A stretch of DNA of 63,823 nt, counting the filler, from an uncultured Methanosarcinales archaeon (GTDB taxonomy: Archaea; Nanobdellota; Nanobdellia; Woesearchaeales; CAYNLP01): assembly GCA_964398115.1 (NCBI GenBank). It is 4 parts of 4 records of this genome, joined end to end, with 100 filler letters (N's around TTAATTAATTAA, not from the genome) between each part and the next. Parts side by side here need not be neighbours in the genome. Positions count along the whole stretch, not along the records: positions 11,645 to 43,603 come from CAYNLP010000009.1; 3 more parts are not named here. The stretch is one strand, 5' to 3'. The position numbers and the translations under genes are program-made. Each line of letters starts with the position of its first letter. Position 1 is the stretch's first letter. Below are positions 18,149 to 42,368 of this stretch, one piece after another. The notes beneath the pieces were generated by a model. The model did not search any database and had not been told where the DNA came from. It saw only the letters and a list, made by a program, of their open reading frames with translations.

Positions 18149-21100
18149 TTAACTCGCCGAATTTTCCGACATTTCCGCGTTTTCTAATGGATTAGCTGGA
18201 CACTGTAACGAGCTAAATATACCTTCCAGTCTTCCTTGAATTATATTTTTCACTTGCTGCGTTTTTTGACTATATAATTGCTGCAAAACTCTTTGCCTGG
18301 TTTGTGCATCCCATAAACTCACTACTTGAGTCAGTACATCTTTAGGCATTACTTTCATCATTTCATCCATCGCTCTAGCTTTAGCGTCAGCACTTAACGA
18401 ATTTATTTCTTCATTAACTAATTGTACTATTTGATCTTCATCGAGTTGGTGAAGTTTTTCATATACTTGCTCTATCCTTTGTGAATCAACTTCAGGCATT
18501 ACTTGTTCTAACATTATTTCTTGAACTTGCACTCCATACTTGCCATCAATGACATCCCTCACTAATTTGTCTATTTGTTCTCTAGTGAGTTGCAAGTCGG
18601 TAACTAACTCTCGCATTTCCTCTTCGCCTGCTTCTGCGTTGAATTCAAGGTTGGTTTCGTGCAAATAATTTATGCGTTGATCTAAGTTGATTGATACTCT
18701 CCTACCTTTTTTCAACATTTCAGCTTTCCTTTCCACTGATAGTTCCGTCACAGTTTGTTTTGCAGCTTTCAAGATTAATTCTTGACTGGACTCGCTGAGT
18801 TCGGATACTTGTCTTGAAGTTTTCCTTACAAAGTTCTTTTTGTCTTCTAGTTTGGTCACGTTTGACAATTTATGCCTGGCTTTCCTCTTCCACTCTTCTG
18901 GTATTTCTCTATCTTGTACGAGATCTTGATACGTTTTTGACTTTTCTTCTGCTGTCCTTACGACTTGTTGTATGTTGTTTCTAAACTCTTCAGAGTTGAA
19001 TTCGTTTTCCACATCTCTTATGGCGTTGGTGACTACGTTATCACTTAATTCTTCACTTAGTCTGGTTTCTCCTACTTGCTTTGCTATTTCCGAATCGCCT
19101 ATTACTTGAATCGCTTTTGCTGGATTACCACTTTCTACGGCGTTGATGAAGTCGTCAGCGTTTTGAGTTATTTTAACGTAAGAATCTTTTATTTCACCTA
19201 GTCCGAGGAATTCTAACATTCTTTTCTCTATTGACACAAACTTTTCACAAGCTTGGATGGGTTCACCTCTTTGCCCGTTGCTGTCCATAGGGATGAGTGT
19301 CAAGCAGTAACTAGGGCTGGTCATTTGAGCTAGTTGGTTCATGAATTCGTTCCCACAAGTGTTCATAATGAAGCTTGTCTTATCTTGAATCTTTCGTGTT
19401 GGTATCTTTCTTGCGAAGTGCACGTTCCCATTTTCTCCTATGACTTTCATGTATTCACACGCTTTATCTTTTATCTCGGTCAATTTTTGTATCATGTCGA
19501 CTTCACTTTCTAGGTTTTGTTCTGCCCTTTGCACGTCTGATTGTAGATCGTTGAGGTATTGGTTGTCGACGCTAACTACTGAGTTTTCACTGCCTACATC
19601 TATGTCTCCTGCTGGGGTGTTTAGGCTGCACTGTACTTGGAATGCGGAAATGTCTGAAGTTTCTGGAACGTCTAGTTGGACTTGTAAAGCTGCTTTTTGC
19701 TGGTTGGGTAACATTTCCAGAATGCTTGGAGGAATTCCTAGTGCTAGGCTTAAGCCTTGAGTCACTACTTGTTCTTGTACTTGGCTGAACAAGTCTTGGT
19801 TGGATTTTTCGACTTGTTCCATGTTTACATTCACGTCTTCTTGTTTTGGTTTTTCATCTCTTAGTGTGAGTGCGAATTTAGAACGGATTGGTTTCTTCAC
19901 AGTGTTTCCATTTTCTTGTATTTTGTATTCTTTTCTTGACTCTGCGCATACGAGGAAGGTTCTCCTGTTCTCTGGGCATAACCCGATAGCTTGTTGGTTT
20001 TGTCCTTGTCCTGAAATCCCTCCTGCTACTTTTGTCAGTACTAATTTGTCTTTATTATTTTCTGGCTTGTATAAGTTCAAACTTTTATAGTCTCCAGATA
20101 GTTGTGAAGATTCTATTTCTATGTTGTTCCCCTCTTTCGTTATAGTTATGGAATCTAGTTTTTCGTTTGTATCGGCGGGTTGTGGATTATAATATGTGGT
20201 GTTTGTTTCCAGGTCGTACACTCTTTTGACGGGTTCTTCCATCTTTATCTTTTGACCTTCTAGTTTTATCTCGTAGTTTTTCGGATCATCTATTTCTGTC
20301 AAGTTCAATCTACAAACGCATCTGGCTCGATCGTTGGCAAGGCAGGTTTCAAATTCTTCCACTACTTTATAGAAGAAGTCGTATTGTTCGCATTGGCTAA
20401 CGTCATTGTAGAGTTTATAGGAATTATTTTCTGAATTGTATTGTCTTATTTTTTCTTTCAAGGTGGCTTGGGGGCTTTCATACGTTTCTTCCCAGGTGTT
20501 TCTCGCCCAGGTTATAACGCTTTGCATGTGTTTGGTAATGCCAGGTAGTTCCAAATCTGTTTTTACTTTGAAGTGTGGCATGACGGTATAGTTTGAACCT
20601 TTATTGAAGTATCCTTGATTAAGTTGTCCTTGTTCGCTTGTTCCTACGCCGGAGCATTGGCTTATACTTTCTTTGTCATAGCTTATTGTGTCTACAGTGC
20701 CTCCTCCGTATAGGTTTAGACAGTTATTAGCGGTAGGACTTGTTTGAGATTGTAAACTCTCGAGTTGGTTTTCGCTGTAAAAGCAGAAAGGATTCCTTCC
20801 TGTTTGTTGGTTTTGGCTTGTGTAAATTCCGAAGTGTAAGTGTTCTGCGCTGGACGCTCCGGTGTTACCCATCGTTCCGATTTGTTGTTCCTTATTTACT
20901 TTGTCTCCAACGTCTACGTTGACTGTTTCAAGGTGAGCGTATCTTGTGTGAAGGCCGTTGTCGTGTTTTATATACACGTAGTTGCCGTATCCGTTGCATT
21001 TTCTTTCACAATCTGGGTTGGGTTGGCATCCTTTTGGACCGCAGTTGTACAAGCTGCATGTTTGTTGTTTGCAAACATCTATCACTTCTCCACTTGCTAT

Positions 21101-21841
21101 GGACTTGATTGTTTCTCCACCTCGGTTTCCGAAGTCGATGCCGTCGTGGAATCCGTCTCCGTGTTGTCTTTGTCCGTAGCAGGAAGTAACGGCTGAGTCT
21201 TGTGCTGTTACTGGCAGAGCTAGGTCTTCATCTTGTATTGAAATGTTTTGTACCGTTGGACCTGCTATTCTTGGTCGTCCCACACCTTTTTGAACTTGTA
21301 CTGTTATGGGTTTTTGAGCTGTGCCTTCTATCACGTATTCTTCTCCTTTCTTTTTCACTTTAAATTCGTAGTTGTTTAAAGGTATGTTTACAGCGGGGTC
21401 GGGATATTTTGCTAGGTAGGATTTCATGTCTGTCTGTAAGAATTTGCTGAACGTGTTGAATTCTGTTTGTGGTTCGCAGAATTGTTGTTGTGTGGACCAT
21501 CTGTTGTAAACAAATTTTGAACAATTAGTTTGTTTCACGGAGAACACGTTGTCGGCGCCGTCAATTCCTTCTTGCCATTCACCTCCTTGGTCGTTGTATT
21601 CTTCAAAGCTTTGACGCATCGAATACTTCGCTGCTTGGTCAATATAGGTTCTTGCACTTTCTGCTTTTTGAATGGTTTCTAACAACGCGGTTTGTGCGTC
21701 TCCAATCTTTCTTTCCTCTCCTTGACTGTTTTTAATGTTGAGTTCTCCTTTCACTGCCATGTAGGAAAATATTAGTAGTGAGATGAGGGTGATTAGTACT
21801 ATGAGGCTGTACACGTATCCTTTCTTACTTTCAATTTTCAT
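18149..21841 (-). CDS. 1230-aa pilin-like-signal protein with an M23 peptidoglycan endopeptidase domain
   Basis: KKG|YVYSLIVLITLISLL; HDGIDF, GYGNYVYIKH, TRYAHL, IGTMGNTGAS..EHLHF. Confidence 0.9.
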   Translation of the reverse strand: MKIESKKGYVYSLIVLITLISLLIFSYMAVKGELNIKNSQGEERKIGDAQTALLETIQKAESARTYIDQAAKYSMRQSFEEYNDQGGEWQEGIDGADNVFSVKQTNCSKFVYNRWSTQQQFCEPQTEFNTFSKFLQTDMKSYLAKYPDPAVNIPLNNYEFKVKKKGEEYVIEGTAQKPITVQVQKGVGRPRIAGPTVQNISIQDEDLALPVTAQDSAVTSCYGQRQHGDGFHDGIDFGNRGGETIKSIASGEVIDVCKQQTCSLYNCGPKGCQPNPDCERKCNGYGNYVYIKHDNGLHTRYAHLETVNVDVGDKVNKEQQIGTMGNTGASSAEHLHFGIYTSQNQQTGRNPFCFYSENQLESLQSQTSPTANNCLNLYGGGTVDTISYDKESISQCSGVGTSEQGQLNQGYFNKGSNYTVMPHFKVKTDLELPGITKHMQSVITWARNTWEETYESPQATLKEKIRQYNSENNSYKLYNDVSQCEQYDFFYKVVEEFETCLANDRARCVCRLNLTEIDDPKNYEIKLEGQKIKMEEPVKRVYDLETNTTYYNPQPADTNEKLDSITITKEGNNIEIESSQLSGDYKSLNLYKPENNKDKLVLTKVAGGISGQGQNQQAIGLCPENRRTFLVCAESRKEYKIQENGNTVKKPIRSKFALTLRDEKPKQEDVNVNMEQVEKSNQDLFSQVQEQVVTQGLSLALGIPPSILEMLPNQQKAALQVQLDVPETSDISAFQVQCSLNTPAGDIDVGSENSVVSVDNQYLNDLQSDVQRAEQNLESEVDMIQKLTEIKDKACEYMKVIGENGNVHFARKIPTRKIQDKTSFIMNTCGNEFMNQLAQMTSPSYCLTLIPMDSNGQRGEPIQACEKFVSIEKRMLEFLGLGEIKDSYVKITQNADDFINAVESGNPAKAIQVIGDSEIAKQVGETRLSEELSDNVVTNAIRDVENEFNSEEFRNNIQQVVRTAEEKSKTYQDLVQDREIPEEWKRKARHKLSNVTKLEDKKNFVRKTSRQVSELSESSQELILKAAKQTVTELSVERKAEMLKKGRRVSINLDQRINYLHETNLEFNAEAGEEEMRELVTDLQLTREQIDKLVRDVIDGKYGVQVQEIMLEQVMPEVDSQRIEQVYEKLHQLDEDQIVQLVNEEINSLSADAKARAMDEMMKVMPKDVLTQVVSLWDAQTRQRVLQQLYSQKTQQVKNIIQGRLEGIFSSLQCPANPLENAEMSENSAS

Positions 21842-22379
21842 CTTGTTTCCATCCTTTAATGTCCATTTGGATAGGCTTTTTCTCGTTTGGGACGGGGAGG
21901 TATATCCGTCCGGTAAATCGGTGGTCTTTTCCGGTTATCAAATCTCTCATAGTTTTTTGTATTGTACCCATTAGTGTAGGGGAAGGTTGTTCTAAATCCC
22001 CGATGGTTAGGCTTTCCCCTGCCGGATATTTTATTCTTATCCCATATGGTAGTTTTGACCTTTCGTATTCAGGATGTATTTCTCGCATTTCCATTTTTAT
22101 TTCATGTTTTAAAGTTTCTCTAGCTTCTGAATCTTCGTAGCTATAAACTACCAGGTCTGCTATCGTGTCTACTTCGGAATTTCCTGACAATTGTACATTG
22201 GTTGGTCTTTTCAAAAGGTTGTTTAAGAAATGTTCTGAGGTGGTGGCTGTGAATCTTGCTTTGGTTATTTCATTTTTTTGTGCGCTTTCCCAGTTTATGA
22301 GTGTGAGGAATCCTGCGAATACTAGGAGGTATAGGACGAACATTATCACGGTTCCTATCACGCTTTGTCCCTTGTTCAT
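21831..22379 (-). CDS. Pilin-like (class III signal) protein
   Basis: MNKG|QSVIGTVIMFVLYLLV. Confidence 0.75.
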   Translation of the reverse strand: MNKGQSVIGTVIMFVLYLLVFAGFLTLINWESAQKNEITKARFTATTSEHFLNNLLKRPTNVQLSGNSEVDTIADLVVYSYEDSEARETLKHEIKMEMREIHPEYERSKLPYGIRIKYPAGESLTIGDLEQPSPTLMGTIQKTMRDLITGKDHRFTGRIYLPVPNEKKPIQMDIKGWKQDEN

Positions 22380-22867
22380 TCTGGCACCGCCACTTTCACA
22401 TCTAGTATTCCTTTGCTAGTGTTTCCGTCTTTCATTATATTCACGGGAAGCCTTTTATGATAGAGTTCTGGACTTCCTATGCCTACGAGTCCTGCTTGTT
22501 GTAATGGTCTCCAAGTTTCGTATTGTTCTTTGTTATAGTAGATTGTTTGTTCATCGCCGTTTTTCACGTTTGTAAGTGTGACTTTTGCCGCCCCTACCAA
22601 GTTTGACTCGTAGTTTATCGCACCGTCTAGGGTTGAAGTGTTGAACTTCTCCCAAGATATAGTTCCTGGGCGTGTTCGTCCCATGTCGTCAACATAGCTT
22701 ATAGTGCTTGGAGAGTATGCAATCCTTGCAAATATCATTTCTCCTCTCACTCTTGCATCTTCGAATTCGTTTCCTGAAAAGTTTTGTATTATTATCAGTA
22801 TGGATATGAATCCTAGCAGGGTTAAGGTAACGATTTTAAACCAAGTTTTGAGTGTAAAATCTACCAT
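22376..22867 (-). CDS. Single-TM protein of the pilin-like cluster
   Basis: N-terminal hydrophobic helix without a basic KKG leader; translationally coupled. Confidence 0.65.
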   Translation of the reverse strand: MVDFTLKTWFKIVTLTLLGFISILIIIQNFSGNEFEDARVRGEMIFARIAYSPSTISYVDDMGRTRPGTISWEKFNTSTLDGAINYESNLVGAAKVTLTNVKNGDEQTIYYNKEQYETWRPLQQAGLVGIGSPELYHKRLPVNIMKDGNTSKGILDVKVAVPE

Positions 22868-23284
22868 TTAGGATCCCTCTTTGAAAAGCCAAGAAGTTTG
22901 GTTTTTCACAATAGTTATGTTATCAGATATCATTCCTGACTTGATATAGTCTAGGTTTGGGTCTGAAGCGTAGGGTTGTTCTATCCCAGCTCTTTGCTGT
23001 ACTGGCTCGTCGCTCTCATCGTAGAAAGTGATTCTATTCTTTGTCGCGTTGAACTCTATCGCATATTTACTTCTTATCTCGTAAGGAAAGTTTACGTTTC
23101 CTGGAGCCGCTAATACTCCGTCTGCCAGTAAAGAAATGTCTTTAGCGTAGTATTTTCTATGAAGGTTTGAGTCACCCACCACGTTGTTTACCATCATGTA
23201 TCCGAAGATTACTATAGTAGCGGCGAGGACTATTTCTACAGCAACTTCAAGAGTTTGATTTTCACCTTTTCTGTAGAGAGACAT
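22868..23284 (-). CDS. Pilin-like (class III signal) protein
   Basis: RKG|ENQTLEVAVEIVLAATIVI. Confidence 0.75.
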   Translation of the reverse strand: MSLYRKGENQTLEVAVEIVLAATIVIFGYMMVNNVVGDSNLHRKYYAKDISLLADGVLAAPGNVNFPYEIRSKYAIEFNATKNRITFYDESDEPVQQRAGIEQPYASDPNLDYIKSGMISDNITIVKNQTSWLFKEGS

Positions 23285-23325: not shown

Positions 23326-24402
23326 TTATTGGCAGAAGTATTTGGATGTCCCTGCCGATGTGAGTTCTGCTTTTACGTTGCATCCGAGTTGGCAAGGATC
23401 CATTGCGCAATGGGATCCTTCTACTTTCGTACAGTCTTTCGCAGTTCCTGTAATAGTGGTGCCCCCGCAATAGTCGTTGCATTCATCTATTTGGGAACAG
23501 TCTATCTGTCTGTATTCAGAAGTTGTCCCTGTAACCTTGCAATATCCGGTTCTGTATGCTTTTCCGTCGCAAGCACATAATTCGGTTATTTTTCCGTCTT
23601 CACATTTTTCAATTTGGATTGCTTCGCACCGGTTCGTTGTGGAATCTTTTCGGCAGTAGTTGGTGATGACACCTTTGATTACTTCATCCGTGTAGCTATT
23701 TTGACATTCTTCATCACTGTTTTGAGAACACTTTTGTAGATGTTTATATCTGTATTTTGTGTGTGGTCCTGAATCTGTTATTAGCACGTGTTGGCGTCCG
23801 TTTTCTGTAATTTTTTCTATGTAGAATTCGTTAAGTTTTCCTATATTGTCTCCGTAAATTACAAAATGTGTTTTTTTGGATTTCATATTATCTGGCAATT
23901 CTTCATAAGCTTGTATATTTACGTTTTTGCTTTCCGCTTTTTTGTCTGTTAAAGGGGGGATTTTGTGTGCTCCCATGAATTCAAAGTTTTGATTGAAATC
24001 CCAGCAGTTGACTATTTCTCCATCGCCGTCGCCTATGTGGAAGTTGTATAGACACATGCAGGTTTGTGTATTGCACCTGTCGGGTTTTCTTACTGTCTTT
24101 ACTTCATCGTCTATATTTACTCTTACTCTTTCTCTCGCTCCGTTGTCAAATCCGGCTAGGGAGAATTTTTCTGGTATGAACAAGCTGTCTGTGGTGTAAC
24201 TCATTCCTTCTTTGCTTAGCAAGTTGTTTATTTTGTCCTTCATCTGTATTGCTTGTTCTTTTGCTGCTTCAGCTTCTGTCGTGTCTCCTGTCACTATGTC
24301 CCACGCTTTGAGTGTTAATGGAAATGCGAATAGGAGAACTACGCCTAGAAACACTATTTTTATAATGTTTTCGAGAGAGAGTAAATCTCCTTTTCTACTC
24401 AT
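23326..24402 (-). CDS. Pilin-like protein with Cys-rich C-terminal region
   Basis: MSRKG|DLLSLENIIKIVFLGVV; many C-terminal Cys. Confidence 0.75.
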   Translation of the reverse strand: MSRKGDLLSLENIIKIVFLGVVLLFAFPLTLKAWDIVTGDTTEAEAAKEQAIQMKDKINNLLSKEGMSYTTDSLFIPEKFSLAGFDNGARERVRVNIDDEVKTVRKPDRCNTQTCMCLYNFHIGDGDGEIVNCWDFNQNFEFMGAHKIPPLTDKKAESKNVNIQAYEELPDNMKSKKTHFVIYGDNIGKLNEFYIEKITENGRQHVLITDSGPHTKYRYKHLQKCSQNSDEECQNSYTDEVIKGVITNYCRKDSTTNRCEAIQIEKCEDGKITELCACDGKAYRTGYCKVTGTTSEYRQIDCSQIDECNDYCGGTTITGTAKDCTKVEGSHCAMDPCQLGCNVKAELTSAGTSKYFCQ

Positions 24403-24412
24403 ATTCTTTATA

Positions 24413-25081
24413 CTATGCCGTATTTATACAGATTGATCCTTCATCATATTCGAAATTGGAGAATGAATCGTCTTGACCGGAAAGCCATCCTTTGTTAACG
24501 TGGATATCTTCAACATCTCCATCATTTTTTGAGTGGAATATTTCTATGATACCGTCTCTGCCTCCACACATATCTAGAGGTATTACTTTGCTATGTATGA
24601 TTTCGGAATTTGTTCTGTAGAATTGTATTCGTGCTATGCTATTGTCCCCTTGCTTCGTAAATTCTATTACTAGATTGGTATCTTCAGTCATTAGATTTAG
24701 TGTTTTTTGTGTTGCTTCTTCGCAGAGTCCTTGTTCTCCTTCATTGTTCTTGCAGGAAATCAGTAGTTGTATCATTTCAGAAAAGGATTGTGTGTATTGA
24801 GCTTCTTTTTTCGCCTTCTCAGTTTGAGGTATACAGCAATTAAGTTTTTCTTCTCTGCATTCTCCTCCTGTAACTTCAGTAGTTACGTATCCTTCATCAC
24901 AGGTTTCTTTACAAACTCCATTTCCGGCTGGTCCGCCGCATGCTTTACCTGCGTTACTAAGCTCTTTACCGAAGAGTTCAATAGATTGTATGCAACATTC
25001 AAGCATGACAACCATTAGTACTCCAACGATTACTACGGTTCCTAATGTTCCGAGTAAGGTTAGACCTCTTTTGTCCATCAT
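24413..25081 (-). CDS. Pilin-like protein with defensin-like Cys motif
   Basis: DKRG|LTLLGTLGTVVIV; C-x8-C-x3-C-x13-C-x6-CC. Confidence 0.75.
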   Translation of the reverse strand: MMDKRGLTLLGTLGTVVIVGVLMVVMLECCIQSIELFGKELSNAGKACGGPAGNGVCKETCDEGYVTTEVTGGECREEKLNCCIPQTEKAKKEAQYTQSFSEMIQLLISCKNNEGEQGLCEEATQKTLNLMTEDTNLVIEFTKQGDNSIARIQFYRTNSEIIHSKVIPLDMCGGRDGIIEIFHSKNDGDVEDIHVNKGWLSGQDDSFSNFEYDEGSICINTA

Positions 25082-25117
25082 GACTTTCTTTAGCTTTTTC
25101 TTCTTATTTAATACTTA

Positions 25118-25849
25118 CTAACTTTCAAATTCGCAATTTTGTCCTTGGACATGCTCTACATAGCAGATGTCGGCGTTTTCTCCACATCCTAAGCCATTAT
25201 AGGCTCTAAGTGCTCTGTTCCAACCTTCGTATTGTTTGTAATGCTGTCTGTAGTCGGTGTAGTCGTAGTTGTCTATTTGTTTGTAATTGTCCGCGTCACA
25301 GTGACTGTTGATTTTGCTGTGATATTCGCTTTCACTCCAACTAGTTGCTTGTTCGTGTTTATCTTTTAATATTGCCAGGCCGCATTTGATGTTTTGTGTT
25401 TTATTCTTTAAGTCTGCGTCTGGGCAGATTGATTCTGCCGTGTCAGGATTTATTTGCATTATCCCGTATGACAATCCGCTACTTACCACGTTTCCTTCTG
25501 AATTGCAGTGCCTCATATTGCTTTCTTGCTGTGCAAGGTCTCGGACTAAAGGCCATGGAAGTTGTCTCGTAGGGGGGAGATCGCTGTTGAATTCTTCAGT
25601 TAGGGTTTGTAATTTTTGTTGGTTTTCGTCTTGAGTGTCGTCTCTATATGCTTGGGGGCACGGCCATGTTTCTCCTGGTTGGTTTTCTTTGTTGGTAACT
25701 CCTAGCAAAGTGTCTTTAAAACTCGCAACTAGTCCTTTTCCGGTATCTCTTGTAGGGATAACAACTGATTTTAGTACTATCACTGTTATAGCTGCTACTA
25801 TGAAGAGTGTGAGTATCGTACGCCAGGTTATTTGTCCTTTTTTCATCAT
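25118..25849 (-). CDS. Pilin-like-signal protein with soluble lytic transglycosylase (SLT/GH23-like) domain
   Basis: Likely start MMKKG|QITW at 25849; SLT motifs QQESN (catalytic Glu), YGIMQI, NIKCG..IL, ALRAYNG. Confidence 0.88.
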   Translation of the reverse strand: MMKKGQITWRTILTLFIVAAITVIVLKSVVIPTRDTGKGLVASFKDTLLGVTNKENQPGETWPCPQAYRDDTQDENQQKLQTLTEEFNSDLPPTRQLPWPLVRDLAQQESNMRHCNSEGNVVSSGLSYGIMQINPDTAESICPDADLKNKTQNIKCGLAILKDKHEQATSWSESEYHSKINSHCDADNYKQIDNYDYTDYRQHYKQYEGWNRALRAYNGLGCGENADICYVEHVQGQNCEFES

Positions 25850-25980
25850 CCGAAAATCATTTCTAGTGTTGAAGTTCCTGTTTCTGACCAGACTTGTTGT
25901 AGTGTAAGCCATACGACGAGTACGAGTGTGGCTATTATGATTGCTATGAGGACCTGTTTGCTTATTCCTTTTTTATGCAT
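25846..25980 (-). CDS. 44-aa minimal pilin (not in ORF track)
   Basis: MHKKG|ISKQVLIAIIIATLVLVVWLTLQQVWSETGTSTLEMIFG; AGGAG SD; stop overlaps the SLT start. Confidence 0.8.
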   Translation of the reverse strand: MHKKGISKQVLIAIIIATLVLVVWLTLQQVWSETGTSTLEMIFG

Positions 25981-25998
25981 GATTATTTTTCTCCTTTA

Positions 25999-29628: not shown

Positions 29629-29659
29629 CTCTAGAGTAATATCTTTTCGGTCTTTTCTA

Positions 29660-32018: not shown

Positions 32019-32518
32019 CCTTCTACCAACGTTTTTTGTCCTCTTCCTTTGAATGTTACTTCTACTACGCCACCCTGTGCTTGGAGGCAGAGTGCTTCAG
32101 TACTTCCTGAAAGTTGTACTTTGTTAGAAGAGGCTACGGCTTCTGTGAATTCTCCTATTAAGAAAATGTTTTGTTTTGACGTGTTAGCTGATTTTAACAC
32201 GTTTAAATCGTTTTGTCCTAAGTTCATATCTGGCTTGGTTTCTATATTGTCTGTTTCTATTCCTCCTTGTATGCTGTTGTTGGCAAAGCAGATTGCTCTG
32301 TAATCGCATGGAAGATTTAAGGTTTCTTTGTGGACGCTTCCGTAGTCGTCGTATTTGTCTAGCAGGCTTGGGATTTCTTTTATGAAGTTTGCTTTTTGTG
32401 CCTCACAGGATTGTGTTAGTAGTCCTTGTATTCCTTGGTATCCTAGTATGAGTACCGTTACTGCTATTAGTATGAATAGGATGGTTGTCATTGATTCTTT
32501 AATTTGAGCTTTCTTCAT
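32015..32518 (-). CDS. Pilin-like (class III signal) protein
   Basis: MKKA|QIKESMTTILFILIAV. Confidence 0.78.
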   Translation of the reverse strand: MKKAQIKESMTTILFILIAVTVLILGYQGIQGLLTQSCEAQKANFIKEIPSLLDKYDDYGSVHKETLNLPCDYRAICFANNSIQGGIETDNIETKPDMNLGQNDLNVLKSANTSKQNIFLIGEFTEAVASSNKVQLSGSTEALCLQAQGGVVEVTFKGRGQKTLVEG

Positions 32519-34928
32519 CTTCTCCGAATGCTTCGTCTGCGTGTTTGCTTACGTCAGTGTCTCCTTTCTCTTCTTTTTCTTCGAATTCGTCGAATAGTTT
32601 TTCTCGTTCTTTTTTCTTCTTTGCTTTTCTTGCTTTTTCTCTTAGTTTTCTTTTCTTCCTTTTTCTTATCTGGTCTGCTGTTGGTTTTTGCCTTTGTTTT
32701 CTTCGTGGTTTCCTTTTAGTGGTTTGTTTCTTCTTTGAGCTTTGTTGTCCTTTCTTCATGCTTTCTGGTTTTTGAGGTCTATTCTTGGCGTGGCTGGTGG
32801 TTTTGCCTATTCCTGGCCCGTAGTATTGTTTGTAGCCGAGATATCCTCCGCCGCCTAGCATCATTAGTATTCCTAGGATTAGCATGATAACTGCGAGGAG
32901 GCTTGGCCCGGTATCTCTTGGTTCTTCGGTTGTGGTTTGTTCGCTTTCACATCTAGTGAGGTCGTATTGACAGTTGGCAGTGCATCCTAGTCTTCCTCCT
33001 GTTTGTCCTTCGAGTTGATCGCACCACGTCTTGCCGTCGAGGTCGTTTCCGTCGCACTCTTCTCCTTGTTCTACTACGCCGTTACCACATTCGGGTTCTC
33101 CACCGTCTGGACCATCTGGTGGTATGTCAGGACCATCTGTTTGGTTATCATCTTGATCGTCATCTGTTTGGTTATTGTCAGTTTCGTTATCATCTGTTTC
33201 TTCACATTGGCTTAGATACTCTCTATATGCCCAGTTTCCTTGATTGTCTGGAATCCACATGCATGCTTTTTGTCCGCATGGCACGGTTAACCTTGAGTCC
33301 ATGTTTTGTGTTCTTGTAGAGTTTTGCAGACATCTATCTCGGGGTTGTACTATTGTGTAGTTGTAGTATTCGCTGCATCCACTGTTTCCGTCTTGACAAT
33401 TTACCACTACGTCGTTAGCGTTTCTCGTTGGGTCTTCACTATCGTTTAGGATGACTACTGGTTCTGTCGTGTCGCATCGGTCGTCTGAACTGTTATACAC
33501 GTTGACGTCTACAGGGTTTGCAGGTTGGGTGTTATCTGCTCCGTCTACTGCTCGCATCTCCCATGTATAGGTCCCGGTTTGTATGTCAAAGTTTCCGTGT
33601 CCTACTTGGTTTCCTGACGTAGTTGTCCAATTAACGATAGTATTGGTTCCTCTTGTTAGGGTGTAGTTGTAGTGTTTTATTCCGCCTTCGTCGTTGGCGG
33701 AGAAGCTTGCCGTTAAGCTTTCAGGTCCGCATTGAGCGTTTTGTGCGTTTATGCTCACGTTCCTTGGTGGGGTTGTGTCTACAGTGAAGGAGTGTGTGGT
33801 TTCTTCAGTTTCTCTTTGTCCTCTGCATCTTACGTCGTATTCGTGCATTCCTTCGTTTAGTCCTTGTAAGTTGGTTGTGTGCGTTAATCCGTCTGTGCTG
33901 GTCATGCTTTGGTAAGTGCCGTTTCCGCTTGGCCTGTATTCGCATGCCGTGCTTATCTGCGTTTCTACGGTGAAGTCGATGTTAGTTGAACTTGTGTATT
34001 CTTCGGGGCTTATCATTTCTATTGTGAAAGCGTGTGTAAGGTCTACCGTTACGGTGTATGTGTTTTGTCCTGTGAGTCCTGCCTTGTTCTGGCATGTTAT
34101 GTTGTAGTTGAAGTTATGTGTGTCGGTGTCGTATATTTCGTAGGTCAGTGTTTCTTGATGTGTTGTGTCGTAGTCGGATTCTGTGCTTGGGTCGACGTCT
34201 CCGATTGTGTTTCCGTCTCTCCAGCAAACTGTGGGTTCATCGGTTGAAATTGTAAGAGTGGTTTCTTGTTCAGCTGGGTCTACGATCGGGTTCGTGGTTG
34301 CGTTGACTTGTACTGTGGGTTGTGTCTGATCGATTCTGAAAGTGTAGTCTTGTTTGGTGTTGTTGCCGGCTTCGTTTCTGCATATGAACCAGATTCTTTG
34401 ATCGTTCCAGCTCACGTCGCTGAATGTGTGTTGTCGTTGGTATGTGTCTGTGTCTTCTCCGTCTGCCCATTGGGTTTGTAGGAGTTCTGAAAATGTTTCT
34501 GTATATTGGCTTTGGCTCCATCCGCAGTGTGCGGGTTCTGTGGTTTCTATTATTGTGTCGTATGTGGTTTGGTCTGTCACTCCAAATTCTGGTTGTTGTA
34601 GTATTATTCTGAAGGGCACGTCTACGATGAAGCTGAAGTTGCTGTTTGCAGTGTTTTCTACTCTGTCGGAGGCTGTAACCCAGAGGGTGTAGTTCCCGTT
34701 GGTTAAGAGTTGTTCTGATGTAAACGTGTAGGTGGTGTTCCAATCCGTTGTGGGGTCTTGTATTACTCGATAACTGTTTCCTTCTCCTCGTATTTCTGCC
34801 GCGTCTATCCTTACTTCTTCTTCGTATTCCGCGGTTATAGTGGGTTTGGCTACTCTGCTTGTTTGCGCGTAGACTAAGCTAGTTAGGGCTAGTAAGGTAA
34901 TTCCTGCTATGAGTAGTTTATTCTTCAT
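32499..34928 (-). CDS. Surface protein: Ig-like repeats, Myxococcus-type Cys-rich repeat, TM, basic cytoplasmic tail
   Basis: Sec signal; VDTTPP and D..GN Ig motifs; CGNGVVEQGEECDG; TM followed by a K/R-rich tail. Confidence 0.78.
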   Translation of the reverse strand: MKNKLLIAGITLLALTSLVYAQTSRVAKPTITAEYEEEVRIDAAEIRGEGNSYRVIQDPTTDWNTTYTFTSEQLLTNGNYTLWVTASDRVENTANSNFSFIVDVPFRIILQQPEFGVTDQTTYDTIIETTEPAHCGWSQSQYTETFSELLQTQWADGEDTDTYQRQHTFSDVSWNDQRIWFICRNEAGNNTKQDYTFRIDQTQPTVQVNATTNPIVDPAEQETTLTISTDEPTVCWRDGNTIGDVDPSTESDYDTTHQETLTYEIYDTDTHNFNYNITCQNKAGLTGQNTYTVTVDLTHAFTIEMISPEEYTSSTNIDFTVETQISTACEYRPSGNGTYQSMTSTDGLTHTTNLQGLNEGMHEYDVRCRGQRETEETTHSFTVDTTPPRNVSINAQNAQCGPESLTASFSANDEGGIKHYNYTLTRGTNTIVNWTTTSGNQVGHGNFDIQTGTYTWEMRAVDGADNTQPANPVDVNVYNSSDDRCDTTEPVVILNDSEDPTRNANDVVVNCQDGNSGCSEYYNYTIVQPRDRCLQNSTRTQNMDSRLTVPCGQKACMWIPDNQGNWAYREYLSQCEETDDNETDNNQTDDDQDDNQTDGPDIPPDGPDGGEPECGNGVVEQGEECDGNDLDGKTWCDQLEGQTGGRLGCTANCQYDLTRCESEQTTTEEPRDTGPSLLAVIMLILGILMMLGGGGYLGYKQYYGPGIGKTTSHAKNRPQKPESMKKGQQSSKKKQTTKRKPRRKQRQKPTADQIRKRKKRKLREKARKAKKKKEREKLFDEFEEKEEKGDTDVSKHADEAFGEDEESSN

Positions 34929-37900
34929 TTTCTAAGGTGTAGGTTGGATCGTCTGGTGCTACGCCGTCGTATAGTAGTTGTAGTGTGGTTTCTATATTGT
35001 TGCCTGCCCAGTCTGTTGCTGTTATTGTCACATCGTTCATAGTTTCGTTGTTATCTCCTGCTATGTTGAAGGGCATGGTGAATTGTCCGTCTCCTCTTAT
35101 GCAGTTGTTTCCTCTTCCAGTACATGTTCCTACGCATCTTTCTTCATTGTTTCTCTCGTTCAATGCGCAGATTTGGGTTGCGTCTACAGAGATAGTTCCA
35201 GTTATCCTTCCAGTAGTTGCGCCGGTGACTTTCAATTCTCGTTCTGGGTCGAAGTATTCTGGTGGTGCTATAATTCTTGCTTCTTCAAACGCTGGGTTAG
35301 TCGTGTCTACCGTCACGGTGAAGTTTTGGATTTCTTCTGTATTGCCTCCCTGATCTTCGCTGTAGTATCTAACCATTTCTGTACCGTCAGTGTTGAAGGT
35401 CATTCGTGTTCTGTTCGCTCCTGTCGCGGTGGGGTTGCATCCTTCTCCTTTACAAGTGTAGAGTTGGTGGCATCCGAAGTTCCAATCTCTTTCGTTATCA
35501 TCTACTAGGTCTGAGCTTCTGTCGTTGCATTCTAGCGTTATGGTTGCGCTTTGCACTGCGCCTTCTTGCATTTCTCTGTTGAGTCCTGTAATTCTCGTCT
35601 CGGGTGGTATTTGGTCTATGACGAATCGTACGACGTCGTCGGGGTTTTGTTCTACTATCACGCTTCCGTCGTTGAGTGAGCATGCTATGTTGTACTCGTA
35701 TATGCCGGTTCCGGACACCTCGCTTGGCGCGGGGTTGGTGTGTTCTGTCGCTCCTGTGGTGCTGAACTCGTTTGTCATAGCATCGTATATGTGCGTGGTA
35801 GGGGAGTATCTGCAGGTGCCGGGACTTTCTGTTGTGGCGGACATTGTTATCTCGCTTGCTTGTGAGAAAGTGGTTCTTGGTTGGATGTTTGTGATTCTTC
35901 CATCTGATTCTACTACTAGGGATCGGCTGATGCCGTGTGAGTTTCTCGCGCCGTCGTAGCATTCTACGTTGAAGGTGTAAATTTCGGGTGGTACTTGGTA
36001 GCTTAGCGAGTATGTGTCTCCAGTGCCGCTTCCTGTGCGTGTGGTCCCTTCTCCGTTTAATTCCCAGTTGCAACTGATTGGCGTGGTTTCGTCATTGACG
36101 TTTATGTTTATGTCTAGTTGTGCGTTATCTGAAGCGGTTGACATTGTTGATGTGTAGGTTAAATCTATACTTGGCCGGTTAGTGTCGTAATTCACGGTTT
36201 CTACGTTTAACACTTCAAGGTTGTGGGCTGGGTCTTCGCTGTAGTACGTGATGTTGGTCTTACCAACTCCGGTTAGGTCTAGCAATATTTGATTTCCTGC
36301 TTGTGTTTGTGGATAGCACGTCCCGCGGGAGAAGCAGTAGTAAGTTTTGATATTTTCTGCGTTGTATGCGTTGTCTCTAACTCCATAGTCTATCCCTTCA
36401 TCCCATCCTATCACTCCGTCACTGTTCAAAAGAAGTGTGGTAGTTGGGTTTTCAAAATCGGTCAGGCATTTATCGTTATTATCTCCACAATCTCCTCTTT
36501 CTACACTTCCGGTTTCGGTTTGTAGGTTGTCTGCGTTTTTGACACATCCTATACCGCCAGATCTGTATTCGCATTTTCCTAGTCCTAATGCGTCGTTGCT
36601 ACGTTGTTCTACTATGTGGTTTCCTCCCACGCGTGTTCGGTCGTCGTATTGTGCGTTTACTTCAACACTTTGTCCTCCGGTGCATGCTGTTCTGTCATCT
36701 CCGTAGTCTTTGCATGTTGCTGATCCTTCACATACGCAGGTGTTATCTTCTGCTTGGAAGTAGCAGTTTCCTAAGCTTTCGCAGGTGTCTTGTGTGCATT
36801 CTTCATCTCCACTTCCGCATAGGCTTCCTAGATTTTCTGCGTTTTCATTAACGCATTTTCCTATTCCTAGGTTTTGACTGGCTGATTCTCCATATGGGGT
36901 TTTCCATTCACATGGTAGGTTTGTCCCGCATGGGTCTCCTAGACAGGTTTGTCTGCTTTCGTAATCCATGCATCCTCTTACGGGACAACTCTTGTACGGG
37001 TCGACGACTGTGCTACTGTTGTCTCGGTAGCATAGTCTGTCTTGTTGTAGTTGGTAACAGGTTAGGTCGGTTGAAGATCCTTCGTATTCTACTTCTCTGG
37101 ATGGGTCAGGGTACATTCCGTATGCTTGGTTGCATTGGTCGCAGTCGGCGGGTGTTTTGCATGATGCTCCTTGTGAGGTTTCTATGCAAACGCTGGAGTC
37201 GCATGAATTTCGGCTTTGGACTGCTCCGTTTGGCCCGCACTGTACTATGTCGTTATCGTGGCAGATGGTTTCTCCTTCTCTTCCGTTGCATAGTATGGAG
37301 CTTACTGTGATTGTTTGTTCTGAACTCGTTACTTCGGTTTGGTCTGGGAACACTGCTGTTATATTGTATGCGTATGTGGTGTCGTATTCTACAGTGGTGT
37401 CTTCGAAGTATGTGGCGGTGGTGTTTCCTACTATTTCGGTTGTTGTTTCACTTTGATTTCTTCTATGTATATAGTATTCTACTCTTGCTTGTTCACATCC
37501 CGGGTTTAAGTTCCATTCTAGTCGTATTATGCCGTCTCCTACTTCTTCTGGTTGGTCTAGTATTAGTTCTTGCGTATCTTCTGCTGCGGTGCATATTTGT
37601 TCGTCAGTAGGTGTTGGCTCGGTTGGCCCGGTTCCTCCTGTCTGGTCTGTTTCTCGTTGGACGTCGCTACATATTTGTGTGCAGTCCATATTTGAGTCTA
37701 TTGGTTCATCTTGATATTCTGTTACGAATGTGTAGGAGTCGCTACAGCTTAGGTTGGCTTGTGGTCTTACTTGTCCTCCTACGCTGATGTTGTCTTCTAG
37801 GTCGCAGCAACACCCGGTCGCGCATTCTGGCACGTTATTACAAGAGTCTTCTATGACGTCTCCTTGGCAAGAACTTTCTTGGTCTGGTGTTATGCCGGTG

Positions 37901-38028
37901 CAGAATTCGTTTTGCCTGTCTACACAACAATAGGATTCTTGTGATGTTACTAGGGCTGGTGAGAAAGCTAGGAGTATTGCTATCAGTAGTGTTATGCGCG
38001 CTTTCATACCGTGTTTCCTCTTCTTCAT
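34918..38028 (-). CDS. Large secreted Cys-rich adhesin-like protein with Fn3/Ig domains
   Basis: Signal peptide; CC..C-rich N-terminus; Fn3-like LEW..YYIHR..FEDTTV....YAYNITA; YYSED..N.E Ig repeats. Confidence 0.78.
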   Translation of the reverse strand: MKKRKHGMKARITLLIAILLAFSPALVTSQESYCCVDRQNEFCTGITPDQESSCQGDVIEDSCNNVPECATGCCCDLEDNISVGGQVRPQANLSCSDSYTFVTEYQDEPIDSNMDCTQICSDVQRETDQTGGTGPTEPTPTDEQICTAAEDTQELILDQPEEVGDGIIRLEWNLNPGCEQARVEYYIHRRNQSETTTEIVGNTTATYFEDTTVEYDTTYAYNITAVFPDQTEVTSSEQTITVSSILCNGREGETICHDNDIVQCGPNGAVQSRNSCDSSVCIETSQGASCKTPADCDQCNQAYGMYPDPSREVEYEGSSTDLTCYQLQQDRLCYRDNSSTVVDPYKSCPVRGCMDYESRQTCLGDPCGTNLPCEWKTPYGESASQNLGIGKCVNENAENLGSLCGSGDEECTQDTCESLGNCYFQAEDNTCVCEGSATCKDYGDDRTACTGGQSVEVNAQYDDRTRVGGNHIVEQRSNDALGLGKCEYRSGGIGCVKNADNLQTETGSVERGDCGDNNDKCLTDFENPTTTLLLNSDGVIGWDEGIDYGVRDNAYNAENIKTYYCFSRGTCYPQTQAGNQILLDLTGVGKTNITYYSEDPAHNLEVLNVETVNYDTNRPSIDLTYTSTMSTASDNAQLDININVNDETTPISCNWELNGEGTTRTGSGTGDTYSLSYQVPPEIYTFNVECYDGARNSHGISRSLVVESDGRITNIQPRTTFSQASEITMSATTESPGTCRYSPTTHIYDAMTNEFSTTGATEHTNPAPSEVSGTGIYEYNIACSLNDGSVIVEQNPDDVVRFVIDQIPPETRITGLNREMQEGAVQSATITLECNDRSSDLVDDNERDWNFGCHQLYTCKGEGCNPTATGANRTRMTFNTDGTEMVRYYSEDQGGNTEEIQNFTVTVDTTNPAFEEARIIAPPEYFDPERELKVTGATTGRITGTISVDATQICALNERNNEERCVGTCTGRGNNCIRGDGQFTMPFNIAGDNNETMNDVTITATDWAGNNIETTLQLLYDGVAPDDPTYTLENEE

Positions 38029-38058: not shown

Positions 38059-39513
38059 TCAGCAAGTAGCGGATCCTGGAGGTATGGCTTTAAACCTTAA
38101 TTCTAAGGGGATTGTTCCGGAAGTGGAGTCGTAGAGGCCTTCGCTGTCGTGAACGCTTATGTGTATTCTTTTTATTTCTATACAGTTCAAGCTTCCACCA
38201 TCGCATGTACATTCAAACTGATGATTAAAGTTAAACTTATTTTCTTTTGGTATTAATTGATTAACCATAGGTGGTGGAGGAGGGGGAGGTGTATAACCAA
38301 CAGGGTTTAATTCCCAGTGTAGTTTTTCACTATCTGGAGATATTATGAATTCGGAAAGGTTAAGTTCTAGTTCGTGTTCTCCTACTTCTCTTGTGTAGTT
38401 TATCACATGCATTTCCGGTACTATTGGTCTTCTGTTTTCAATGTATCCTTGTATCATTAGTTGTTTTCCGTCTACCAAGCTTTCGGTGTCTATAACTCTT
38501 AGGAGGTCGTCGTGTTTCCATTTTTCTCCGTAGCTTTTCTTTCCTGTGTAGTTTTTGAGCACGTTTACTTCGAAGCCTTCTCTGCGGAGGGGGCTTTTTC
38601 CTTGTGAGAGGTTGTAGGTGATGTTGCGTACTTCTTGTTTTAGTATGTCTCTCGTGTATTCGTATAGTTGTTTGAATCTAGCGTCTATCCTATGTTCGAA
38701 GTTTATGTTGAGGGTGACGGGTGGTTGTCCTGCTCTGCTTACTTCGACGGGGTATGTGACGTTGACTTTTACGTCTGTCTTTCCAAACGTGTAGGTGACT
38801 CTAGGCTTGTTTAACACGTCGATTTGGTATCCTTGCTTTTCTTCGAAATCGTCGAAGTTTGCGCATCTTGGCAGGTGTGTCTGTGTATAGTTTTTCAGTT
38901 GTAGTTGGACCGGGTTTTCTGACGGTCTGCCGTATCGTCCTTCGCATGTGCTGTAGACTTCTGGTCGGTTGATGTTTCCTTTCCAATTAGATCCGTTTAT
39001 AGTACAGAGACGGTGGGTGTTTCGATATCCTGCGAATCCTGAATTTGTGTATAACGGGCATTGTTCGTTCCAATACTGTAATGATTTGAGTTGTGTTATG
39101 TTCGCCCCATCTTTAGGGTATTGTGGCGGTTGTGAGTTTATATTTGGGCATCCGGTGTAGGTGATGTTTTTTAGAAGGTATGTTACGTTGTATTTCCTGT
39201 CTTGTGTTTCTGGCTTGACTTGAGCGTAGTTTGTTCCTGGCGTTCCTGTTTTTTCTACGGTGCCGTTTTGTTCTTTCCATAATATTCCTCCTTGGTATCC
39301 TGCTAGTTGTAAGGCGTTTTCGCTGACGCTTTGTATGCAGCTTTTCACGTAGCTTCTTACGCTGTTGCTATCGAGGAATTCTTGTACGGCTTGTTCTGCT
39401 TCTTCCTTGTTTGTTTCGGATTGTATGCTGGTGGTTGCGAAGTATACGATGGCTATGGCTATGAGTGCGAGGAGCCCAAATACTACGAGAATTGTGAATT
39501 GTCCTTTACGCAT
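38059..39513 (-). CDS. Pilin-like (class III signal) protein, 484 aa
   Basis: MRKG|QFTILVVFGLLALIAI; YVKSCI.......L...GYQGG; poly-Pro near the C-terminus. Confidence 0.8.
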   Translation of the reverse strand: MRKGQFTILVVFGLLALIAIAIVYFATTSIQSETNKEEAEQAVQEFLDSNSVRSYVKSCIQSVSENALQLAGYQGGILWKEQNGTVEKTGTPGTNYAQVKPETQDRKYNVTYLLKNITYTGCPNINSQPPQYPKDGANITQLKSLQYWNEQCPLYTNSGFAGYRNTHRLCTINGSNWKGNINRPEVYSTCEGRYGRPSENPVQLQLKNYTQTHLPRCANFDDFEEKQGYQIDVLNKPRVTYTFGKTDVKVNVTYPVEVSRAGQPPVTLNINFEHRIDARFKQLYEYTRDILKQEVRNITYNLSQGKSPLRREGFEVNVLKNYTGKKSYGEKWKHDDLLRVIDTESLVDGKQLMIQGYIENRRPIVPEMHVINYTREVGEHELELNLSEFIISPDSEKLHWELNPVGYTPPPPPPPMVNQLIPKENKFNFNHQFECTCDGGSLNCIEIKRIHISVHDSEGLYDSTSGTIPLELRFKAIPPGSATC

Positions 39514-39524: not shown

Positions 39525-42368
39525 TTATCTTAGTTGAGTACGGCCGCTGAGAAGGTTCCAAGCTTGACTTTCCGGATTTTTCAAGATGAGTTCGTTGTCA
39601 GTTATTCTGGAACTTTCTGCCCTCACAGAGTTATTAATTTCTTCGTAACTCACTCCAATATTTTGGTATTCTACTGTCATGTAATTCACTCTTTCCTGAT
39701 TCTCTATGTCATACGTGTTTTCCATCAAAACTTTTATCCTTTGATCCCCTCTTTGTTGTAAGTATATCTTGTCAAAGTCTTGTAGTCGTGCGCTGAATTC
39801 CTGTTCTATGCCGATTAGGGATTGGAAGAATCTTACTATTTTATCCCATGTATTTCCGTCAGTAGCGAAGAATCCTCCACTATAGCTTCCAGGTTCTTTT
39901 GATAGCATTATTATTTTGCTGTTAGCGTCGTAGTATACTGCTAGGTTGGGCATGACGGCACATTCTTCGAATCCGAAAGTTTCGTTGTCGCAGTTGTTTT
40001 CCCACTCTTCCGGATTGGCGTTTGGATTCCTGCTAATGTATTCTGCTCTTAAGTTATCCATATAATTACTTATGGCGTTGTCATCTTGTTCATTGCCGAT
40101 ATGCGTAGCTACTAACGCCGGTTGGTCTTCTCTTACCAACGCGCAGTATTCACTCGTTTCCCCTGTGTTGGCTGTAGTTATTAAGCTTCTTGCTTTATCG
40201 TCACAGTATAGTTTGAAATTGTCATTGTTTAAGTCTACTTGTGTTAGTAGTTTTTCTGCAACCATTCTAGTCCTTGATGTCCAATTACCATTGAGGCAAT
40301 AATTGTTATCCTGCCAATATCTTGTGTCTCTACACCCTTCATCTAATTCTAAACCTAGCAAGCATTGGTTTTCTTCAGGACAGTAGCCTCTTTCTGTTTC
40401 GTCCATGCTTCTTTTCAAAACGGGGTCTCTCACCCACTCTCCTCGTTGAGTTTCTGCATTGTAAACACAGGTATAGGGTATGTATTGTCCTGCGCTTTCA
40501 TCGTAGCACGCTACGGTGGCATTTGGCACGTTAACTGCTGAGCTAGTATGGTTATAGTTTATGCCTCCAAGATGGCGTGGTGTTTGTAGGTTGTTCCAGC
40601 TTATTCTATCTGTTGCTGTTCCTTGACATTCTGCCCAGTATGGGTATTCTGTTGGTGCTTCTTTTCTATTTCCGGTGTGAGATACTGCGGAATCATTCTC
40701 AGTGTTTCCTTCGCTAACGCATCTACAATTGTCTGGTGCGCTTGGATCACAGGAGGGATAATCATCAGCAGCGCATTCTGTAACGTTCTGAACATATTTG
40801 CTTCCGCTTTGGTAACAGGTGCAGTAATGATTACTTCCGTCTGATGCTGAAACTAGAGGGATTGTGGAAGCAGCTTTTCTAGCATCCTCAGTGTTAGTAT
40901 CTTTTGACGCTGGACCTCCAGGTAAAGGATCACAATTTTCTGGATCGAAAGTGCACTGGTATTGTGTGGAACAGTCTGAATCACTACATTCTAATCTCTG
41001 AAGCATGTATCCTTTTCCACAATGCGTTCCTCCCGCTGGTGAACTTGTATTACAACCGATGTTATTCCAGGTACAAGTGTCTTCATTGCATGACGCACTA
41101 GTTCCTGTTATGTATTTTGGAGCGTCTGCATCAGGGTTAGGTTTAACATCTAAATATTGGCTGTTCCAAGTTGTGATGACGTCGCACCTGCCTGGAGCGG
41201 GTTGCCAATCCGCTCTTTTTGAAAGGAGTGAAGCATTTGTGTTCTGGTGATCTCGTAGTATTTCTCCCTTACACATTTGTGTAGGTAAATCTACTATGTC
41301 TAAACCGTGTCTTTCTAAGAAAACTTGATTACAATAATCTTTTGACGCTCGTTTCCAGGATTTATTTATACAAAATTGATTATTTCCATTAGTCACCACG
41401 TATGTAGCATTGTCTTCTGGATCGTTTCCACAACATGCCAGGCTTGGATCCGTTTCATTTACTTTCTGACTCCAATCATTACCGTTAGCTAGACAGTACT
41501 CTCTTTTTTCTGTGTTTACCGTTCTCAAGGCACATTGGTATCTGAATTTTCTGTCCTCTTCTGGCTCCCCACTATGGTACGATCTCATCCCAACTAAAAA
41601 GCCGTTTCCACAATCTACTGCAGATCCTTGCCTCCATTCATTTGGAGAAGTCCAACTTGTAATGTTGTAAGGATCGTTATTTGCATCGGTGCTCATACAA
41701 GCTTGATCATCTCCACTATCAGCGTTTAATTCACCCCGACAGTGATCCTGTGAGTTTTCATTCATCCCTTCTGGATAGCAGCATTGATATTGCCATTTAC
41801 TATCGTCAGCTGAAGATCCAAAGTCTGTATCTTGATCATATGCTTTTACTCCTGCTAGGTAACCTTGACCACAGTCAATTCCGGAACTGTAATCTTCTTG
41901 GTTTTCTGTCGTCCAATCATTACATGTAACTCCTGGAGCAGTTTCTCCTGAAACAGTACAGAAGTCATCGGGGTCGTCGCCTTGATCACGACATATTTCT
42001 ACGGATCCATTGTCCATTCCTTGATTGTATCCACATTTTACCATGAACATTCGTGCGTTGGCGTCATCATCATATTTTGAGCTTATTCCTGCTATGAATC
42101 CTTCTCCACAATGAATCCCCCATGCCTCTTCACCATCAAAGTTAAGTCCCCAGTAAGTGTCTCCAGTGTTATACCAGTAGCTAGTGTTTGTCATGTAAGG
42201 GTTATCTACTGACGGTTCCGGGCACCATTGGTTTTCTCCAGGAGATCCACAAGACTCGTAGTTTATTTCTGTGCCTTGTGAATACGCGGGGAGTGGTCCT
42301 GCTTGTACTATGGTTGTTAGGAGTAGTGTTGAGAATAGTATTGTTAGTATGGTTGTGGTTTTTTTCAT
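39525..42368 (-). CDS. Large secreted Cys-rich protein with dermatopontin-like repeats
   Basis: Sec signal; three CG.G(F/Y)..G..S...D..(F/W).Y.C repeats. Confidence 0.72.
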   Translation of the reverse strand: MKKTTTILTILFSTLLLTTIVQAGPLPAYSQGTEINYESCGSPGENQWCPEPSVDNPYMTNTSYWYNTGDTYWGLNFDGEEAWGIHCGEGFIAGISSKYDDDANARMFMVKCGYNQGMDNGSVEICRDQGDDPDDFCTVSGETAPGVTCNDWTTENQEDYSSGIDCGQGYLAGVKAYDQDTDFGSSADDSKWQYQCCYPEGMNENSQDHCRGELNADSGDDQACMSTDANNDPYNITSWTSPNEWRQGSAVDCGNGFLVGMRSYHSGEPEEDRKFRYQCALRTVNTEKREYCLANGNDWSQKVNETDPSLACCGNDPEDNATYVVTNGNNQFCINKSWKRASKDYCNQVFLERHGLDIVDLPTQMCKGEILRDHQNTNASLLSKRADWQPAPGRCDVITTWNSQYLDVKPNPDADAPKYITGTSASCNEDTCTWNNIGCNTSSPAGGTHCGKGYMLQRLECSDSDCSTQYQCTFDPENCDPLPGGPASKDTNTEDARKAASTIPLVSASDGSNHYCTCYQSGSKYVQNVTECAADDYPSCDPSAPDNCRCVSEGNTENDSAVSHTGNRKEAPTEYPYWAECQGTATDRISWNNLQTPRHLGGINYNHTSSAVNVPNATVACYDESAGQYIPYTCVYNAETQRGEWVRDPVLKRSMDETERGYCPEENQCLLGLELDEGCRDTRYWQDNNYCLNGNWTSRTRMVAEKLLTQVDLNNDNFKLYCDDKARSLITTANTGETSEYCALVREDQPALVATHIGNEQDDNAISNYMDNLRAEYISRNPNANPEEWENNCDNETFGFEECAVMPNLAVYYDANSKIIMLSKEPGSYSGGFFATDGNTWDKIVRFFQSLIGIEQEFSARLQDFDKIYLQQRGDQRIKVLMENTYDIENQERVNYMTVEYQNIGVSYEEINNSVRAESSRITDNELILKNPESQAWNLLSGRTQLR

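Follow-up and report, generated by a model that had tools for sequence, protein, structure and literature searches.

The archaeal genome examined here (labelled as an uncultured Methanosarcinales archaeon, GenBank assembly GCA_964398115.1, GTDB order Woesearchaeales; 1.0 Mb, 91% complete, G000 in our numbering) carries a locus of pilin-like genes, two of which contain predicted peptidoglycan hydrolase domains. The window, i.e. the whole stretch of DNA that was analysed (63,823 nucleotides), consists of four joined contigs; positions 11645-43603 are contig C9, and the whole locus lies within C9. Between 42368 and 18149 we found 21 open reading frames (ORFs), all on the minus strand, which were lettered A to U from 42368 down to 18149 (Table 1). 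An earlier note on this DNA had described about 23 co-oriented, mostly overlapping genes. The common orientation was confirmed, but 23 genes are reached only by including Rpp30 and a presumably S-layer-like gene upstream, and 10 of the 20 junctions overlap or abut (16 of the 20 measure at most 40 bases).

A class III start, i.e. a short basic leader, a G or A and one hydrophobic helix, was recognised by eye in 17 of the 21 genes. The note had given 18; the eighteenth is S (22376-22867), which has the helix without the leader and whose orthologs mostly bear one. A strict FlaFind-like pattern, as we presume it to be defined, matched 10 of 19 locus genes against 17 of the 1152 other ORFs of the genome, showing that class III signals are enriched at the locus. 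With a relaxed pattern these numbers were 16 of 19 (one a false match on the 1036-amino acid (aa) protein) and 45 of 1152. Both counts cover 19 of the 21 genes, as J and K (85 and 92 aa) were missed by the ORF caller and were judged by eye. Only three of the 21 genes had a match at the Pfam cut-off, namely U (M23), O (SLT) and D (an Ig-like domain), and no Pfam or NCBIfam pilin model matched the locus subunits at cut-off.

The M23 domain of U (E=4.5e-25, aa 231-344) has 34 solved relatives and retains the zinc motifs HxxxD and HxH (H232, D236, H334 and H336). The SLT domain of O (E=1.8e-10, aa 116-192), for which a sequence search found no solved relative, has QES at 129, GIMQI at 150 and AYNG at 237, corresponding to what we take to be the SLT catalytic set (catalytic Glu, GxMQ, AYNxG). 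The wall-lytic domains reported on two class III genes are thus present and, judged by their motifs, both appear intact. No other M23 or SLT match was found in this 91%-complete genome, and four control archaea had neither family. Archaea have no peptidoglycan of their own, so the enzyme of such a filament would be aimed at a bacterial wall.

U is apparently a scaffold with an insertion slot. Its N-terminal ~180 residues are common to the U orthologs, and in the window the insert (~residues 187-417) contains the M23 domain. Among 235 U sequences (some of them duplicates), 71 have a recognisable closing-strand motif and 164 do not; in these 71 the strand follows immediately in 30 and is delayed in 41, by 159 to 845 residues in 40 of the latter. 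Read from sequence, these are empty and filled forms of one hairpin.

Peptidoglycan-active Pfam domains were detected in 64 of 104 U genes (13 of 24 in a first set and 51 of 80 in a second), and in four more genomes a wall enzyme is encoded by the gene next to U. The second set was ranked by scaffold score; it counts two matches below the Pfam cut-off, and takes as misses a C39-only gene and six unscanned genes of <240 aa. The cargo families are M23, SLT, GH73, Amidase_2, NlpC/P60, VanY/M15, 3D and YkuD, with at most three per protein, and Amidase_3 occurs on U neighbours or, in locus L282, on U. They comprise several unrelated folds that cut different bonds of one polymer, and their convergence therefore argues for a peptidoglycan substrate better than any single domain does. 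GDSL esterases accompany the cargo in three U genes, which would fit removal of O-acetyl groups. The catalytic motif is kept in 17 of 26 M23 and 17 of 20 SLT cargoes.

Cargo differs even within a genus (none in genome G023 against 3D in G141; none in G145 against GH73 in G030). On a tree of 103 U scaffolds the cargo needs 45 changes, the least possible being 8 and the mean after shuffling 53.8. This was a quick, poorly resolved tree (9 of 100 branches starred) and its starred branches force only 1-2 cargo changes per label, and therefore it does not fix the number of swaps. The comparative data show, at the level of predicted domains, repeated replacement of the U wall enzyme by unrelated wall enzymes. 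In L052 (6173-8746, G160) and L121 (3952-6510, G072), U has an M23-like insert missed by Pfam; that of G160 is without the zinc motif in the alignment and is perhaps a binding-only form.

Table 1. Genes of the locus and its downstream neighbour, with positions in the window
Gene	Product	Position	Strand	Remarks
A	947-aa Cys-rich secreted protein, ordinary signal peptide, module 1	39525..42368	-	46 Cys
B	484-aa class III protein (MRKG/QF), candidate module 1 tip subunit	38059..39513	-	N-terminus U-like
C	1036-aa Cys-rich secreted protein	34918..38028	-	56 Cys
D	809-aa Ig-like surface protein, C-terminal membrane anchor and basic tail	32499..34928	-	20 Cys; Big_13 E=2.8e-7
E	167-aa class III minor-pilin-like protein	32015..32518	-	Present in 27/30 loci
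F	358-aa class III-like protein (MKTG/QI), module 1 marker	30942..32018	-	162/201 genomes of the order
G	161-aa class III protein	30460..30945	-	Model: 56-residue helix and four-stranded sheet, pLDDT 92.9
H	169-aa class III protein, closes module 1	29954..30463	-	T-like
I, J, K	Three paralogous 80-92-aa six-cysteine class III-like proteins	29096..29916	-	
L	460-aa class III protein, K-like start and long extension	27712..29094	-	
M, N	Paralogous class III-like proteins (221 and 305 aa)	25999..27568	-	
O	264-aa class III protein with lytic transglycosylase	25118..25912	-	SLT domain ~25337-25567
P, Q	Cys-rich class III proteins (222 and 358 aa)	23326..25081	-	
R, S, T	Conserved minor-pilin-like trio before U (138, 163 and 182 aa)	21831..23284	-	S leaderless here
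U	1230-aa class III-like protein	18149..21841	-	Scaffold ~21284-21829; M23 20810-21151; closing strand ~20570-20590; long variable tail
RPA	Single-strand DNA-binding protein	16833..18092	-	Conserved downstream neighbour, in 20/30 regions; at most a candidate part of the system

The model of the empty U scaffold (predicted local distance difference test, pLDDT, 92.9) had three type IV pilins among its top five of 48,161 chains, a weak fold match; no archaeal pilin was among the best 50 of these chains, which leaves such pilins possible. Foldseek against the PDB gave no match at E<=0.001 for the G or the U scaffold model. A wide structure search with G returned helix matches only, and the nearest named Atlas cluster of G is DUF7287 (score 0.91). 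The Atlas clusters closest to G belong to Nanobdellota/Woesearchaeota and one U relative has the NCBI label Candidatus Woesearchaeota, from which the order was judged to be Woesearchaeales. The U profile found 3 proteins only in a protein word index; the U scaffold comprises 2104 clusters at 50% identity.

Within the order, F was matched in 162 of 201 genomes and the U scaffold in 181 of 201. These tallies, like the genome-wide M23 and SLT tallies, include at most five unpublished genomes (G105, G169, G189, G191 and G193), which no locus-level claim uses. In 30 loci picked for long contigs the gene order was B, giant genes, E-F-G-H, variable small six-cysteine genes with M/N/Q, R-S-T-U and RPA, so that the conservation expected in related genomes was borne out; R, S and T were found in 23, 21 and 23 of these loci. 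Identities between loci are 15-30%, and therefore the locus is old and inherited and not a recent island. In L360 (G181) the genome has no U match and the downstream module has M23 on Q; the same genome contains one 1758-aa frame with four M23 matches (G181:C1:141822-145355).

The locus consists of two modules, whose halves are joined in 26 of the 30 loci and apart in 4. Among 130 genomes from other orders of the class, U and G each had a match in 35, and the halves are separate there. In all 10 such genomes examined the upstream half precedes a 700-940-aa gene whose start we take to be S-layer-like. In 8 of 10 other-order genomes the genes for a 760-aa ATPase and a membrane protein of 680-730 aa stand directly before the downstream half; in one of these 8 the fetched stretch covers only the membrane gene of the pair. 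The remaining two are one rearranged genome and one contig end. The distance between U and an A24 peptidase is 6-18 kb in 5 of the 10. Paralogy of the two modules was considered and kept as a lead only, as it fades without the N-terminal helix: in hhalign B matches U at 93% over full length and at 28.5% without the first 34 columns, and H-T similarity is 11.7% after removal of the helix.

The note had found no assembly ATPase, TadC-like platform or prepilin peptidase in the window and expected them elsewhere. The genome indeed holds three secretion-type ATPases with platform genes (T2SSE matches at C27, C6 and C12) and one A24 peptidase (C3:51309). The C12-type 760-aa ATPase is VirB11/FlaI-like and is paired with a membrane protein (C12:17834-22366). 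This 725-aa partner has no Pfam match, but a two-part profile match to Pfam-positive TadC (94.6% and 79.9%) supports its prediction as a fused TadC of 720-740 aa. In an independent set of 80 loci of the C12-type ATPase, 69 had room for neighbours; the downstream half lay within 3.5 kb in 19 of these, the upstream half in 2 and neither in 48. In 26 loci examined for the motor link (90 proteins of >=240 aa scanned), a pilin-like gene with M23, SLT or amidase was present in 7, in L282 on U itself, and therefore a single operon can encode the motor, the platform, pilins and a wall enzyme. The ATPase/TadC pair adjoins none of the 30 loci of this order, and the motor assignment therefore rests on relatives.

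In most loci the 760-aa ATPase is preceded by small membrane genes, two to three in number, and by a further two, divergent genes of 200 and 142 aa (C12:14920-17722 in G000); these are likely, as yet unnamed, parts of the machine. Two further type IV pilus clusters in G000 (C27:1398-6328 and C6:23465-34420) have ~500-aa ATPases, paired TadC and their own class III genes; none of 20 M23 genes checked adjoins a cluster with a ~500-aa ATPase. Several 'uncultured Methanosarcinales archaeon' records (L278, L286, L291 and others) carry the 760-aa type of ATPase at ~60% identity amid Woesearchaeota records, and their labels look wrong.

The note placed three very large Cys-rich/Ig adhesins at the upstream end; these are A, C and D, of which only D has a Pfam Ig match. 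All three start with an ordinary signal-peptide-like sequence. A orthologs bear PKD and MopE-type repeats, D relatives bear TSP3 repeats, and genes at the place of C can be longer than 5000 aa in relatives, where Ig-like repeats and carboxypeptidase-regulatory-like repeats are also seen. A Pfam scan of 21 such upstream giants, taken from 8 genomes, detected PKD, Ig-like, TSP3 and MopE repeats and no wall enzymes, and DUF2341 was not among the matches. These proteins may serve as adhesins, and their genes are part of a separate, older module. The giants of L055, L043 and L069 are ~5000-5600 aa long with up to 210 cysteines. Off-locus paralogs of B were seen in G000 at C1:52158-57997, behind a 1242-aa secreted protein, and at C10:13846-15126, possibly as spare tips; Pfam matched neither the C1 paralog nor the C-terminal 500 aa of its large neighbour. 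In G186 and G075 a B-type paralog is followed by an M23 gene.

Of the middle genes, I, J and K are candidate major pilins, given their small size and a copy number that varies between loci. In related lineages M/N usually come first among the genes recognised behind the platform gene, and genes at the Q/R place bear wall enzymes in some relatives. The locus is flanked upstream by Rpp30 and a partial gene which, from sequence features, we take to be S-layer-like, and downstream by RPA and RadA. Contamination was ruled out because the locus is on a single contig, has the archaeal neighbours RPA, RadA and Rpp30 and is syntenic order-wide. No RNA record was listed as containing 24400-32600. The end of the S-layer-like protein is at window 43011-43544, and the gene apparently continues on contig C26, which has a 55-base overlap with the end of C9.

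The locus is real, occurs across the order and probably encodes a type IV filament in which one subunit swaps its enzyme; it bears directly on who hosts Woesearchaeota. We consider it reasonably probable (roughly 60%) that its products are the subunits of a type IV filament specific to the lineage, which brings a swappable wall enzyme to the bacterial cell wall. The A24 peptidase would cut the class III leaders, and the 760-aa VirB11-type ATPase and the fused TadC, encoded elsewhere, would assemble the subunits, as gene order in relatives suggests. The shaft would be built of the small six-cysteine pilins I/J/K and capped by two minor-pilin sets, B with E-F-G-H, which goes with the very large adhesin-like proteins, and R-S-T-U. 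U, with its domain inserted in a loop of its sheet, would present this peptidoglycan-cutting domain, presumably at the tip. The filament would bring the enzyme to the wall of a live bacterium and open it locally for attachment or feeding, and the enzyme would be swapped as targets change. The genomic predictions of the note (machinery, conservation and motifs) all held for a pilus that binds a bacterium and delivers hydrolases, but 'displays' fits better than 'delivers', because the enzymes are fused into pilin-like subunits. The data suggest that these archaea contact bacteria and break them open. Only tentatively, at somewhat less than even odds, would we extend this to most Woesearchaeales as contact parasites or predators of bacteria, with the filament tip pilin as a wall-cutting cassette swapped between unrelated folds to match the host wall.

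The same filament could instead be a feeding device that binds and digests biofilm debris and bacterial walls, either free or from dead cells, with no living host attacked. Its enzymes would suit this equally, U is followed in G088 by a GH3 glycosidase and phosphoesterases, and many wall enzymes are located outside the locus. We regard this as unlikely: an enzyme fused into a filament subunit fits contact action, and single swapped cutters would yield few usable monomers. The single amino-sugar family searched, PF01182 (a thin test), matched only a gene in a pentose-phosphate cluster, and for that position the match was rejected as evidence of amino-sugar use. It is highly improbable that the target is methanogen pseudomurein, chitin or another glycan, as MurNAc-L-Ala amidases, D-Ala-D-Ala/L,D-peptidases and lysozyme-like folds are generally understood to point to bacterial murein, and no pseudomurein endopeptidase family is among the Pfam matches on U and the motor-linked pilin-like genes. 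Such a target would agree with SLT-like domains proposed to act against archaeal walls in other predators (bioRxiv 2023.11.21.568195; statements on this and the other papers cited refer to the accessible parts of their texts) and with the co-occurrence of Woesearchaeota and methanogens (as cited in PMC9723730).

Alternatively, no long filament is made. The class III proteins would then remain anchored in the membrane, or join into a short pseudopilus or a bindosome-like surface complex presenting enzymes and adhesins where cells make contact. Class III leaders also occur on substrate-binding proteins (PMC4858521), the major pilins are candidates only, the fold match is weak and many subunits have large heads. 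The operon with ATPase and TadC in relatives, the multi-copy small pilin-like genes and the models of a long helix with a sheet make this quite unlikely. A pilus for uptake of DNA or nucleotides, with wall enzymes freeing the DNA of neighbours and the adjacent RPA and RadA handling it, would explain why RPA follows the locus in 20 of 30 regions and RadA in 12 of 30, as they do in other orders too. We consider it very unlikely, since RPA and RadA are housekeeping genes, ComEC was not found in this 91%-complete genome and the Pfam matches on U include no DNA-binding or nuclease domain.

Compared with known systems, the score against large tip pilins of the GspK/PilX type is weak; we take the GspK insert to be non-enzymatic and not swapped, unlike that of U. 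With archaeal type IV pili of clade 1 (Methanococcus Epd; Makarova et al. 2016, PMC4858521) the system shares the VirB11 ATPase, TadC, A24 peptidase, small (here candidate) major pilins, at least five minor pilins and large adhesins. It differs in its fused TadC, in subunits without a Pfam/NCBIfam pilin match and in minor pilins with wall enzymes; Woesearchaeota have 0 occurrences in the accessible part of that pilus census. The Myxococcus Kil/Tad pilus with interchangeable Tips (Herrou et al. 2025, PMC12075869) likewise has a Tad-type motor, several minor-pilin sets, a variable domain exposed by the largest subunit and contact action on bacteria, as proposed for the present filament. The analogy is functional only: Kil/Tad is bacterial, its Tips are thought to recognise prey and depend on a type III secretion system, and 'peptidoglycan' is absent from the main text of that paper.

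Earlier papers have described wall enzymes in these archaea and suggested bacterial hosts. Castelle et al. 2021 (PMC8204110) reported murein transglycosylases (fam00969, in module 98) in Woesearchaeota/Pacearchaeota, and, like Vigneron et al. 2022 (PMC9723730), proposed bacterial hosts or prey for the same lineages; the main texts of both make no mention of pili or pilins. Module 98 includes many one-helix families without domains and may include these genes, compared by description only and with 17 of its 52 places seen. The protein fam00969 is probably different from the SLT/U genes of the locus, because its median length is 1947 aa and SLT genes of that size lie 35 kb from the ATPase or on other contigs in three genomes. 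Strock et al. 2025 (PMC12352652) likewise found wall enzymes prominent in Nanoarchaeota, as modular hydrolases, with no mention of pili, pilin or class III in the accessible text. Among the top-ranked matches of our literature search, which covered few subscription papers, no publication tied the wall enzymes of these archaea to pilins. Cultivated DPANN archaea live on other archaea (PMC11291902). If most Woesearchaeales are indeed such parasites or predators of bacteria, the U cargo would predict host type across an order without a cultured member in the literature covered, and the locus is in addition a source of varied wall-lytic domains. Bacterial attack by Woesearchaeota has so far been proposed from scattered wall enzymes, without a mechanism; the locus offers one, in the form of a conserved surface machine whose likely motor can be named and in which the cargoes exchanged in a single gene converge on peptidoglycan.
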